Position numbers and translations under genes: made by a program. A stretch of 64,000 nt of DNA. Origin: an uncultured archaeon (GTDB lineage Archaea; Asgardarchaeota; Lokiarchaeia; Sigyniarchaeales; SOKP01). Below, one piece after another: positions 18,460 through 22,786 of the stretch. The stretch is taken from NCBI GenBank assembly GCA_964486045.1, contig CAZALK010000006.1, positions 128,001 through 192,000 on the forward strand. Direction: 5' to 3'. The stretch's first letter is position 1. Each line of letters starts with the position of its first letter. The notes beneath the pieces are model-generated. The model was not told where the DNA came from and ran no database searches. It was given only the letters and a program-made list of their open reading frames with translations.

Positions 18460-18554
18460 AAAAATCTTTAAATAAGTAAAAGATAATTATCTATATAACA
18501 AACTCTTTAAAAATAACAAAATTTAATAAAATTATAAAAAATTATAAGTGGAGG
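18460..18554 (+). promoter_or_regulatory. Putative TATA box (TTTAAATA 18467-18474, preceded by an A-run) and SD (GGAGG 18550-18554) of the histone gene
   Basis: Motifs and spacing upstream of ATG 18563; TATA call is weak in AT-rich DNA. Confidence 0.55.
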
Positions 18555-18562
18555 AAAAAAAA

Positions 18563-18856
18563 ATGGCAGGTTCTGAATATATTAGTTGGAGTCCTATTAG
18601 GCGTCTTATGAAACTATAATAATCGACTGGATTATTTCTTCAAAATAATGGCGCTTTAATCGTTGCTCGTGATGCAGTTAACGAGCTCGTTGAATGGATG
18701 GGTAGTTCCGCTGAGAAACTTACTAAAAATGCTTTAGTTTTAACTAAACACTCTAAAAGAAAGAAAATCACGAGTTTCCTTTAGAATTCCTAAAAAAGCG
18801 TGAAAAATGATATTCTTTTAGCGATTAAATACTTCAAATCAGTTAAAATAAGCTAA
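18563..18856 (+). CDS. Archaeal histone-fold protein, split gene: join(18563..18614,18645..18774,18805..18856), 77 aa
   Basis: Joined translation MAGSEYISWSPIRRLMKHNGALIVARDAVNELVEWMGSSAEKLTKNALVLTKHSKRKKITRNDILLAIKYFKSVKIS has histone-fold hallmarks (PIRRLMK..GA..V..DA; H.KRK.I..xDI.LA); SD upstream, T18 tract downstream. Confidence 0.9.
18615..18644 (+). other. Putative BHB/BHL-type mRNA intron 1 (30 nt)
   Basis: Central helix TGAA/TTCA, bulges AC^T and AA^A, exon stem GCGTC-TTA/TAA-(T)-GGCGC, intron stem AATAATC/GATTATT; two in-frame TAA. Confidence 0.8.
18775..18804 (+). other. Putative BHB-type mRNA intron 2 (30 nt)
   Basis: Central helix CACG/CGTG, bulges AG^T and AA^A, intron stem TTTAG/CTAAA, exon stem CTAAAAGAA/TTCTTTTAG; in-frame TAG and TAA. 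Confidence 0.8.
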
Positions 18857-18878: not shown

Positions 18879-18896
18879 TTTTTTTTTTTTTTTTTT
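18879..18896 (+). terminator. Poly-T terminator of the histone gene
   Basis: 18 consecutive T shortly after the stop codon. Confidence 0.7.
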
Positions 18897-18944: not shown

Positions 18945-19430
18945 TTACTCCCATAATTCAAGAAAATCAAATTCTGAAAATGTGTTAATTCGTGGAAAAT
19001 GCTTTTTATCTTTTGTTATTAAAATAACTTTATTTGAAATTGCTATAGAAGCATTCAATAAATCAAATTGAGGCACTTGCTTCCCACTTTTATCTAAATC
19101 CGCGCAAATTTCGTCATAAATTTTACTAGAATTTGAATCTAATGTTTTTATTTCGGAAAGGTTGCTAATAAAACTATTTAATTTTTTTGCTTCAACAATT
19201 TGTTTCTGTTTAGATTTTAGAGCATAGATGCCGTACCACAATTCACCTGAAGTTATTTGAGTTATTGTTAAATCATTTCCCTGTGATATTAAATTTTTGA
19301 TTTTTCTTTCTACTTTTTCAAATATTTCTTGAATAAATTTTTTTGCCTTTTCAGGTGAACCTTTTGAAATATATTCAGATATAGCATCGAGGTCTAAGAG
19401 AGCGTCGGTAGACCATTTTATGTCAACCAT
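18945..19430 (-). CDS. Chimeric ORF: ParE/RelE toxin N-terminus fused to VapC C-terminal part
   Basis: IKWSTDALLDLDAISEYISKGSPEKAKKF is ParE-like; from KVE onward it closely matches the VapC at 16953-17381. Confidence 0.8.
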   Translation of the reverse strand: MVDIKWSTDALLDLDAISEYISKGSPEKAKKFIQEIFEKVERKIKNLISQGNDLTITQITSGELWYGIYALKSKQKQIVEAKKLNSFISNLSEIKTLDSNSSKIYDEICADLDKSGKQVPQFDLLNASIAISNKVILITKDKKHFPRINTFSEFDFLELWE

Positions 19431-19609
19431 TTTTTCATTCTTTCCTTTGCATCTTCATGTGTAAGAAAATTTCCATCTTTAATTTGTTGCTGAGCTTTAA
19501 TAATTCTCTCATTAACATACAATCGATATGTAATTTCTTCTACAGGTAAATCATCAGGAAGAGATTTAATAAAATTTAATACTTTATCTTTTGAAGATAA
19601 TGGTGGCAT
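19418..19609 (-). CDS. Putative antitoxin of a ParE/RelE module
   Basis: 63 aa, KDKVLNFIKSLPDD..LTHEDAKERMKKW; overlaps the start of the ParE-like ORF. Confidence 0.7.
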   Translation of the reverse strand: MPPLSSKDKVLNFIKSLPDDLPVEEITYRLYVNERIIKAQQQIKDGNFLTHEDAKERMKKWLT

Positions 19610-19984: not shown

Positions 19985-22786
19985 TTATTTCAAAAATAAT
20001 CGTATAGTAAAAGTGGATCCTTTATTCCGTCCTTTAGATTTTACAAAAATTTCACCTTTATGTAATTTAATGATTTCACTTGCGATATACAATCCAAGAC
20101 CTGGTCCTTCAATATCCACATCCATGCGTTTTCCGTACCTTTCTATTTTACCAAATTTTTTAAACAGGGTTGTCATTTCTTTATCGGTTAATCCTACACC
20201 CGTGTCTCTTATGATTATATCCATAAAATTTTGATGTTTAACTGATTTGATATATACGTCACCATTGGGTTGGGTGTTCTTAACAGCATTAGATAATAGA
20301 TTTAAAATTGCTTTTTTAATCATTCCTTTATCTATGTCTGCAATTAAATCGGTAGGAAGCTCAAGATTTATGATTATTTTACGTTTGTCAGCCTGAAAAA
20401 CTAATACTTCAACACACTCCTTTATTATAAGATTTATATCTTCTCTTTTTATATTTATCCTTATTTGACCAGTTTCTATTTCAAAGGCGGTAATTAAATT
20501 ATCAACCATTTCTTTTAATCTATAACCTCCTTGATGGATAATTTTAATAACATTTTCTACTTCATTATTCATCTTGTCATTAAAATAATCTAAAAGAAAT
20601 TGAGAACCAGTCAAAATGGAAGTTAACGGAGTGTTTAGTTCATGGGAAATTCTTGATATAAGATCATTTCTTAATTGATCGAGTTCTTTTAATTGTTTTA
20701 TTTCTCTTTTTATCATATCATCAATTTTTTTTCTTTCTGTGTTATCGCTTACTAATCCAAAAACTTTAAATTCATTATTAATTTCCACTAGGCTCCATCT
20801 AGCAGAGATTGGTACAAAGTATCCTTTTTTATGTTTTATTCTACATTCTATAAATACAGCTTTTTTAGTTTCTAATGCTTTTTCAGCTGTTTCATTAAAC
20901 AAATTCAAATCTTTAAGGTGTACAAATTCCCTAAAATTCAATCCAATTAATTCCTCTGATTGATATCCAATTAAATTATTTATTTGGGGACTAATATAGG
21001 TTAGAATCCCACTAGGTTCAGCTTCCAACAAAACATCAGAAATGTTGTTTATTAAATTTTGGATTTTTTCCTCTGATTCCTTTAATTTTATAGTCCTATC
21101 CTCTACTTTTTGTTCTAAAATGTTACTCAATCTTCTATATTTCTGCTCTGATTTCTCCAATGACTTTAGTGTTTGACTATTAAAAAGCGATATTGAAGTT
21201 AATTCGGCAAATGCGGTAACTATCCTTGATTCTTCGTCTGTAAATTCCCTTTCCTCCCTTGTTAAACCCATCAAACCTTTTACCTCATCGTTAATTATTA
21301 ATGGGGCAATTAATACATTTTTGAGTGGAACATGCCCTTTGGGTAAGAATTTTATCCAATCACTAGTAGAAAAGTCATTATAGTACATTGTTTTTTTGGA
21401 TTTGATTACCTCAGCTCGCATTCCTCTAATTAGCATTGGTAAATCTGGATCTACTTCGTTTGTCAAACTTTTAGGATTTATAAAAATTTTTTGCTGTTCT
21501 TTCTTACTTGGTGCTAATATTGCAATATAACCTGCATCCGCTCCAATTAAATTATTACAAGAATTAAATATCATTCTTTGGGCTTTTTCAAAATTAATAT
21601 ATTGTAAAACCGCCGTTGAAGCATCAAAAAGCATTGAAATTTCTTTATTTCGATTTTTTAAAGCTTCTTCCGCCTCTTTGCGTTCGGTGATATCTCGAGC
21701 AACACTAATAATTGTGTTTTTTCCCCCGAACTTAAAAACTCGAGAGCTAATTTCAATAGGAACGATGTTTCCATCTTTTGTTATATGTTCAGCTTCTATC
21801 ATGAGCTTTCCTTTTTCATGAAGAGTTTTTATATTTGCTTGTATATCAATTTTATATCCTGGAGGAGTTATATCTTTAGGAGTCAACTTCAATAATTCTT
21901 CTCTGGTATAACCCAATCGTTCGCAAGCTGTTTGATTTACCTCAATAAATTGACTACCTCTGTCATGAATGAAAATCGCATCATTAGTATTTTCAAATAG
22001 GGCTCTAAATTTTTCCTCAGAATTTTTTAAAGCTTCTTCCGCCTCTTTGCGTTCGGTGATATCTCGAGCAACACTAATAATTGTGTTTTTTCCCCCGAAC
22101 TTAAAAACTCGAGAGCTAATTTCAATAGGAACGATGTTTCCATCTTTTGTTATATGTTCAGCTTCTATCATGAGCTTTCCTTTTTCATGAAGAGTTTTTA
22201 TATTTGCTTGTATATCAATTTTATATCCTGGAGGAGTTATATCTTTAGGAGTCAACTTCAATAATTCTTCTCTGGTATAACCCAATCGTTCGCAAGCTGT
22301 TTGATTTACCTCAATAAATTGACTACCTCTGTCATGAATGAAAATCGCATCATTAGTATTTTCAAATAGGGCTCTAAATTTTTCCTCAGAATTTTTTAAA
22401 GCTTCTTCCGCCTCTTTGCGTTCGGTGATATCTCGAGCAACACTAATAATTGTGTTTTTTCCCCCGAACTTAAAAACTCGAGAGCTAATTTCAATAGGAA
22501 CGATGTTTCCATCTTTTGTTATATGTTCAGCTTCTATCATGAGCTTTCCTTTTTCATGAAGAGTTTTTATATTTGCTTGTATATCAATTTTATATCCTGG
22601 AGGAGTTATATCTTTAGGAGTCAACTTCAATAATTCTTCTCTGGTATAACCCAATCGTTCGCAAGCTGTTTGATTTACCTCAATAAATTGACTACCTCTG
22701 TCATGAATGAAAATCGCATCATTAGTATTTTCAAATAGGGCTCTAAATTTTTCCTCAGATTCTTTAATTTCTTGTTCTGTCTTCAT
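19985..22786 (-). CDS. PAS-PAS-PAS-GAF-PAS sensor histidine kinase
   Basis: SHELNTPLT H-box, NLLSNAVK, DTGVG, GLGLYI; repeated PAS domains. Confidence 0.95.
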   Translation of the reverse strand: MKTEQEIKESEEKFRALFENTNDAIFIHDRGSQFIEVNQTACERLGYTREELLKLTPKDITPPGYKIDIQANIKTLHEKGKLMIEAEHITKDGNIVPIEISSRVFKFGGKNTIISVARDITERKEAEEALKNSEEKFRALFENTNDAIFIHDRGSQFIEVNQTACERLGYTREELLKLTPKDITPPGYKIDIQANIKTLHEKGKLMIEAEHITKDGNIVPIEISSRVFKFGGKNTIISVARDITERKEAEEALKNSEEKFRALFENTNDAIFIHDRGSQFIEVNQTACERLGYTREELLKLTPKDITPPGYKIDIQANIKTLHEKGKLMIEAEHITKDGNIVPIEISSRVFKFGGKNTIISVARDITERKEAEEALKNRNKEISMLFDASTAVLQYINFEKAQRMIFNSCNNLIGADAGYIAILAPSKKEQQKIFINPKSLTNEVDPDLPMLIRGMRAEVIKSKKTMYYNDFSTSDWIKFLPKGHVPLKNVLIAPLIINDEVKGLMGLTREEREFTDEESRIVTAFAELTSISLFNSQTLKSLEKSEQKYRRLSNILEQKVEDRTIKLKESEEKIQNLINNISDVLLEAEPSGILTYISPQINNLIGYQSEELIGLNFREFVHLKDLNLFNETAEKALETKKAVFIECRIKHKKGYFVPISARWSLVEINNEFKVFGLVSDNTERKKIDDMIKREIKQLKELDQLRNDLISRISHELNTPLTSILTGSQFLLDYFNDKMNNEVENVIKIIHQGGYRLKEMVDNLITAFEIETGQIRINIKREDINLIIKECVEVLVFQADKRKIIINLELPTDLIADIDKGMIKKAILNLLSNAVKNTQPNGDVYIKSVKHQNFMDIIIRDTGVGLTDKEMTTLFKKFGKIERYGKRMDVDIEGPGLGLYIASEIIKLHKGEIFVKSKGRNKGSTFTIRLFLK
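21653..22759. repeat. Three tandem 369-bp repeats, identical by eye (one PAS domain each)
   Basis: Units 21653-22021, 22022-22390, 22391-22759; identical translations in the ORF track. Confidence 0.97.

Follow-up and report, generated by a model that had tools for sequence, protein, structure and literature searches.

How is a histone gene read when it is interrupted twice by inserts that contain in-frame stop codons? This question is raised by a short gene on the forward strand of a 64-kb window (the whole stretch analysed, C6:128001-192000, with positions below counted from its first letter) in the 5.18 Mb, 31% G+C genome of a Loki-type Asgard archaeon (Lokiarchaeia, Promethearchaeota) from marine sediment. 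In the direction of reading, MAGSEYISWSPIRRLMK is followed by 30 nt with stops, 43 histone-fold codons, another 30 nt with stops, and NDILLAIKYFKSVKIS. The second insert (intron 2, 18775-18804) is most likely an archaeal intron of the endonuclease or bulge-helix-bulge (BHB) type in the histone pre-mRNA. Splicing of the message is very probably required, because relatives keep the shape of the intron through matched base changes.

An earlier note on this DNA had described a BHB at the second insert, and all of its elements are present where the note placed them (Table 1). RNAfold recovered the nested helices at -13.1 kcal/mol (z = -2.54; 4 of 200 shuffles were equally good). The intron hairpin is formed by the pairs T18776.G18798 and T18777-A18797 and by TTTAG (18780-84) with CTAAA (18790-94). 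If both bulges are cut behind their second base, exactly 30 nt are lost and AG meets A as the split codon of Arg61 (AG/A); the splice product reads ...KHSKRKKITRNDILLAIKYF..., giving RKKITRND. Three 30-nt deletions restore the frame, and a 4-bp central helix is found in the 18775-18804 register only, the others having 2 and 1 pairs. For calibration of the register, the same cut rule recovers the introns at position 37/38 in three tRNA-Ser genes of the host genome.

Removal of both inserts (18614-18643 and 18775-18804) gives a product of 77 residues. Its sequence is colinear with, and 80-93% identical to, those of 56 intron-free subfamily members from the genus. The claim that codon 61 of the RKKITRND motif is split by a BHB-type intron is supported. 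Exon 2 alone scores 19.1 bits against Pfam PF00808, under the cut-off of 21.4. The intronless orthologue L007 shares 93% identity with the spliced product; its PF00808 score is 35.2 bits (profile positions 6-65), and it also matches the solved histone chains HMfA/HMfB. In an alignment with HMfA, R56-K57-K58 correspond to the GRK-T stretch, and the split codon to an Ala three residues past the K-T positions. The intron had been set inside the DNA-binding L2 loop motif; its site is at the L2/alpha-3 boundary and not inside the contact residues.

The histone subfamily is present in 49 of the 54 genomes of the genus, and eight of the 64 genes recovered have 30- or 31-nt inserts, at five positions. 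A metagenome scan with an exon-anchored pattern matched 118 stretches, 13 of which were histone genes, and yielded 14 further genes, on 13 contigs, whose insert is at or beside codon 61. Seven of these 14 have the intron type of the window, and two (L170, L186) have the same type with compensated changes. L164 has the type of G007 with a different arm, L130 has a 31-nt intron, and L127 (twice) and L132 have 32-33-nt inserts that start 2 nt downstream of the codon-61 site and use a different central helix.

Ten distinct introns at the same site, from 4 genomes and 9 metagenome contigs, could be aligned as 73-nt sequences with no gaps. Paired cells make up 93.5%, and sliding the partners by 1-3 columns lowers this to 38-52%, in an alignment of which the scan pattern fixed some exon columns and left the intron, the outer central pair, and the co-varying stem columns free. 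Changes on both sides occur in 9 of 23 pairs, and none of 500 shuffles reached the observed covariation score. They comprise the outer central pair (C-G to U-A), two stem pairs (U-A to C-G, and A-U to G-C in four sequences), and six of the nine hairpin pairs. The inner helix is paired in 84% of its cells and has 6 pairs with double changes. The intron arms of G007 and L164 differ at most positions, both are fully paired, and their exons show 15 synonymous differences and 1 non-synonymous one. The covariation analysis proposed in the earlier note thus finds the pairing conserved, and its idea of selection on geometry is supported, as central helix, intron arm, and exon stem all show compensatory changes.

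A decaying pseudogene, with inserts that are debris and a hairpin that is a chance feature of AT-rich DNA, is a highly unlikely explanation. It would account for the stops in both inserts, and four other histone genes of the genome could supply the function. In addition, approximately 0.6% of the position/length combinations in the gene pass a lax BHB filter, and a structure-only scan of the genome gave no excess at any length versus a mirrored control. However, a lax BHB fit at a frame-restoring site is found for intron 2 and eight further introns of the subfamily, which is more than chance. Values of dN/dS among the intron-bearing genes are 0.01-0.25 (0.51 for one close pair, on 9 differences) and indicate that these genes, in several lineages, are under purifying selection. 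The compensatory changes in three helices also argue against decay, as do inserts that are always 30-33 nt long and exactly removable. Expression signals are conserved: the GTGGAGGAA context of the ribosome-binding site is common to intron-bearing and intronless orthologues, and orthologues have a T run behind the gene too. Moreover, both copies of the subfamily in the host carry introns, while most genomes of the genus keep the subfamily.

The exons appear to be adapted to the intron as well. In the four genes of the genus that have an intron at this site, all nine pairs of the exon stem are Watson-Crick (9/9). Among 61 intronless copies, pairing amounts to 5/9 (6 genes), 6/9 (23), 7/9 (19), or 8/9 (13), and none has 9/9. 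Most of this partial pairing follows from the codons needed for SKRK and ILLA. An imperfect hairpin is thus inherent in the site, and it could have favoured codon 61. Full pairing, reached at synonymous positions, is confined to genes with the intron. Because no intronless orthologue reaches 9/9, the perfect stem, judged from these genes, accompanies the intron rather than predating it. The suggestion that introns were inserted into existing mRNA hairpins is consequently not supported in the form in which it was made. All intron genes of the three 30/31-nt lineages use ACG for T60, a codon that none of the 61 intronless genes has at this residue. For Arg61, AGR is used by the intron genes and by 10 of the 61 intronless ones. 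Kinship reduces these counts to approximately 3-4 independent lineages.

Several points weigh against an intron of the BHB type. Outside the bulges, the exon helix consists of one pair, U18768-A18806, which a 6x6 symmetric internal loop separates from the 9-bp stem. Because the exon-side helix is only 1 bp plus this distant stem, the motif is a relaxed BHB and not the strict hBHBh' form, and a broad-specificity enzyme is therefore needed. The intron arm of the host-genome version carries a 2x2 CC/AA mismatch (18778-79/18795-96). The central helix has 4 bp in 9 of 10 relatives and is reduced to 3 bp plus a G/A mismatch in G019, and each of the two closing pairs is disrupted in 1 of 10 variants and in one low-depth contig. 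A junction 1-2 bases upstream would give Lys61, a residue that some orthologues also have, and the cut positions are inferred from geometry.

Table 1. Positions of the histone gene, its BHB elements, and comparable inserts
Feature	Position	Strand	Basis or remark
Histone gene, 77 codons without both inserts	18563-18856	+	translation; orthologue colinearity
Exon 1; exon 2; exon 3	18563-18613; 18644-18774; 18805-18856	+	stop TAA 18854-56
GGAGG ribosome-binding site, ATG 8 nt downstream	18550-18554	+	sequence
Intron 1, 30 nt, relaxed	18614-18643	+	junction can slide in A run 18611-18614
Distal exon-exon stem, 5' arm CTAAAAGAA, codons S54-K57	18753-18761	+	
Single exon-side pair adjoining 3' bulge, U18768-A18806	18768	+	paired 10/10: U-A 6, U-G 4
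Central 4-bp helix, exon strand CACG (I59 last base + T60 ACG)	18769-18772	+	
5' bulge AGT, predicted cut 18774/18775	18773-18775	+	tRNA-Ser register; Arg61 as in closest orthologues
Intron 2, 30 nt	18775-18804	+	in-frame stops TAG 18782-84, TAA 18791-93
Intron hairpin	18776-18798	+	arms 18776-18784 / 18790-18798, loop AATTC 18785-18789
Central helix, intron strand CGTG	18799-18802	+	
3' bulge AAA, predicted cut 18804/18805	18803-18805	+	
Distal exon-exon stem, 3' arm TTCTTTTAG, codons I64-A67	18813-18821	+	
18-nt T run 3' of stop codon, likely archaeal terminator	18879-18896	+	orthologues have T run too
Histone insert site	K17/N18		own (intron 1), G068, G019
Histone insert site	after residue 22		own paralogue on C12, G061, G077
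Histone insert site	K55/R56		own C12 paralogue; G077 (31 nt)
Histone insert site	inside codon 61		own (intron 2), G068, G019, G007
Histone insert site	D63/I64		G020
RNA polymerase A' subunit, GHFGH/IELA	C13:44101-44130		30-nt BHB insert
Thiolase, CASGM/DAF	C3:186175-186204		30-nt BHB insert
Nucleoside/AMP phosphorylase, DKHS/TGG	C7:186723-186752	-	30-nt BHB insert

Enzymes suited to a relaxed motif are encoded in the host genome. A catalytic endonuclease homologue (201 aa) still has the catalytic His; among solved structures it matches 3P1Z_B best, the catalytic subunit of A. pernix, and it aligns with the extra loop of that chain and with a Lys corresponding to A. pernix Lys44. The Lys44 loop of A. 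pernix confers a broad substrate range (PMC3241643). In a second homologue of 200 aa, Ser replaces the catalytic His, as expected of a structural subunit. The host thus encodes a two-subunit splicing endonuclease with a broad-specificity loop, a type that has been reported for Asgard archaea (PMC5829648); the reading frames of the two subunits are L073:1168-1770 and L074:1207-1806. An RtcB ligase is also encoded, at C1:512216-513523 (557 bits).

With these enzymes, the following order of events can be proposed. In the transcript, the 9-bp exon-exon stem would draw the exon ends together, and CACG at the end of exon 2 would pair with CGUG at the 3' end of the intron. AGU and AAA would be left as 3-nt bulges on opposite strands, and the intron hairpin would close inside. 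The two-subunit tRNA-splicing endonuclease would cut each bulge after the second base, and RtcB would ligate AG to A, forming the Arg61 codon, and would probably circularise the 30-nt intron. The third helix of the histone fold would then be encoded by the spliced message only. We infer the cutting, the joining, their exact positions, and the role of the enzymes named.

Introns of the same kind are found in the tRNA genes of the host. Rfam detected 29 tRNA matches in the whole genome and none in the 64-kb window, and inserts were mapped on the Rfam alignments, as ARAGORN alone was too noisy. Among the mapped inserts, 7 of 10 are 28-31 nt long and several lie outside the anticodon loop; the tRNA-Ser introns have AGU/AGC as 5' bulges and CAA/AAA as 3' bulges. 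The mRNA and tRNA introns therefore share a length class and a bulge style. Inserts of 28-31 nt are found in most of the tRNA genes with introns, several at non-canonical positions, and part of the tRNA set of the host is therefore probably hidden by introns.

This likeness also bears on translational explanations, in which the ribosome skips the insert (bypassing, as in phage T4 gene 60) or the stops are recoded. A stop soon after the 5' junction and a hairpin in the gap give a superficial likeness to bypassing, yet matching take-off and landing codons are absent (ACG AGT ... GTG AAA). The conserved features are those of tRNA-intron geometry, namely 3-nt bulges and an exon-intron helix, and the same geometry and length class occur in host tRNA genes, where no ribosome is involved. 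Readthrough of TAG and TAA would put 10 extra residues at the start of helix 3. Bypassing or recoding is accordingly extremely improbable.

The earlier note had likened intron 2 to intron 1. The 30-nt length, the 5-nt loop, and the presence of in-frame stops are indeed common to both, and the intron 1 site is also occupied in G068 and G019; the bulge pattern is not shared. Intron 1 was rejected as a strict BHB because registers that restore the frame form 2 of the 4 central pairs at best. The sole strict BHB at this place is 25 nt long and would break the frame.

At all histone positions other than K17/N18, a strict central helix and two 3-nt bulges are found at the frame-restoring site, and the 3' bulge of every strict-type histone intron is AAA or AAG. 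The closest paralogue in the host genome (G000:C12:112703-112975) has two 30-nt BHB inserts at two other positions, one after NGAV (helix GGCT/GGCT) and one after KHSK (helix TCTA/TAGG). The 31-nt introns of L130, at the codon-61 site, and of G077, at K55/R56, have BHB-predicted ends that restore the frame. Contig SDBV01132256.1 (L127) carries two tandem histone genes, both with 32-33-nt inserts; one of these inserts is in frame without a stop and reads ERERADLSMPV, so that the unspliced message would still be translatable. In L056 (G061), tandem histone genes lie approximately 0.9 kb apart with nearly identical exons, and a 30-nt intron stands after residue 22 in one copy and not in the other, a difference that points to either recent gain or precise loss. 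At least 5 changes of the intron label are needed on the tree, which is weakly resolved (198 columns).

Removal of the inserts from DNA was considered as well. Insert-bearing contigs from three independent studies carry strain variants of intron 2, and the intronless joint was not seen in the DNA contigs of these studies; DNA-level excision was rejected on this ground.

Introns of this type may not be limited to histones. A lax ORF-restoration filter over the genome gave no excess, as the structure-only scan had done. A strict filter, which demanded a BHB that restores an ORF with at least 40 open codons on each side, showed enrichment at 30 nt only, with 17 observed versus approximately 6 expected from the random-site rate. 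Three of the 17 are convincing by well-known motifs and lie in the genes for the RNA polymerase A' subunit, a thiolase, and a nucleoside/AMP phosphorylase (Table 1).

These genes bear on the idea that endonuclease cutting serves mainly as a control device, with partial or conditional splicing, so that endonuclease/ligase activity would set the output of histone or of a truncated product without helix 3. Transcription and translation are coupled in archaea. Such coupling, two stop-containing introns within 77 codons, and the gain and loss of introns among close paralogues would fit control. Against it, most orthologues lack any intron, and similar introns occur in housekeeping genes such as that of the RNA polymerase A' subunit. 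We consider a mainly regulatory role unlikely.

A further idea is that the 30-nt mini-introns are a spreading class of elements that lands repeatedly at defined histone codons. Introns of no fewer than three diverged lineages occupy the Arg61 site, and a further lineage lies 2 nt downstream. The exon tag ACGAG is common to the three Arg61 lineages, and no intronless copy has it. These features would point to site-specific gain, either through reverse splicing followed by reverse transcription or through gene conversion carrying exon flanks, with later reshaping of the host exons to form a perfect docking stem. A single old intron at codon 61 with many precise losses would be the alternative to repeated gain. 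Intron 2 is unique in sequence, with no second copy of the 30-mer in the genome. Its best non-self matches are 15 nt, as AT-rich DNA predicts, and none lies at an Rfam tRNA locus. The search for donors among tRNA introns found no similar 30-mer in the genome, and the other queried histone 30-mers gave short matches only, among the matches listed. We regard spreading as a tentative possibility, doubtful at present; if true, Asgard archaea would have active mRNA-intron gain run by the tRNA-splicing machinery.

Splicing of protein-coding transcripts by tRNA enzymes has a precedent. A literature search found no paper on BHB introns in Asgard mRNAs or histones, and the searchable papers document just one archaeal protein gene, cbf5 of Crenarchaeota, whose mRNA is spliced by the tRNA endonuclease and ligase. 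The cbf5 pre-mRNA of Desulfurococcales and Sulfolobales contains a BHB/BHL intron (Yokobori 2009, PMC2738675). Like the histone intron, it is an endonuclease-type intron in archaeal protein-coding sequence that was gained and lost among relatives, and the hosts likewise have a two-subunit endonuclease with a broad-specificity loop. The intron was reportedly also treated by Watanabe in 2002 and Yoshinari in 2006. The present case differs in several respects. The host is an Asgard archaeon and not a crenarchaeon, the gene encodes a histone, and the likeness is one of mechanism and not of descent. Two introns occur in a 77-codon gene and five positions in one small family, with a near-fixed length of 30 nt and a co-varying 9-bp exon-exon stem. 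For cbf5, RT-PCR and in vitro work demonstrated splicing, whereas splicing of the histone message is predicted.

Non-canonical archaeal tRNA introns (Marck and Grosjean 2003; SPLITS; PMC5829648) have the same BHB geometry and cut register. The inserts in host tRNA genes share the 28-31-nt class with the histone introns, and the tRNA-Ser introns share their A-rich bulges. Unlike tRNA introns, the histone introns reside in mRNA, so that the exon pairing must be built from codons, and intron 2 has no sequence similarity to any tRNA intron in the genome. A more distant parallel is offered by HAC1/XBP1, where IRE1 cuts a small mRNA intron at stem-loops and RtcB or Trl1 joins the exons, as a regulatory step. 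Common to both are a small mRNA intron, a protein endonuclease, and sealing by a tRNA ligase. However, the enzyme here would be EndA and not IRE1, and the motif is a BHB and not twin stem-loops; homology is not implied.

Such introns have consequences for annotation. The histones of the host genome comprise two members of this subfamily, with two introns each, and four others that are only 43-58% identical; a Pfam search of the genome found these four and missed both intron-bearing ones. Gene finders miss or truncate intron-bearing genes, and Asgard gene counts are therefore biased, chromatin proteins included. More generally, splicing of protein genes by tRNA enzymes appears to be recurrent in the archaeal group closest to eukaryotes, and its mini-introns affect core genes and reshape exons at synonymous sites. 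This makes it possible to test how introns are tolerated under transcription-translation coupling, how protein-spliced introns spread, and whether mRNA processing by tRNA enzymes predated eukaryotes.

Three reading frames on the reverse strand lie beyond the histone gene. The adjoining one encodes 161 residues (18945-19430) with a ParE/RelE-type N-terminus and a PIN-like C-terminus by eye, and overlaps a 63-residue frame (19418-19609) that is antitoxin-like, also by eye. The third (19985-22786) encodes a sensor histidine kinase of 933 residues, the N-terminal part of which repeats a PAS-like unit of approximately 124 residues, in three exact copies and the start of a fourth. These repeats look like a very recent tandem amplification, or a collapse or expansion in the assembly.
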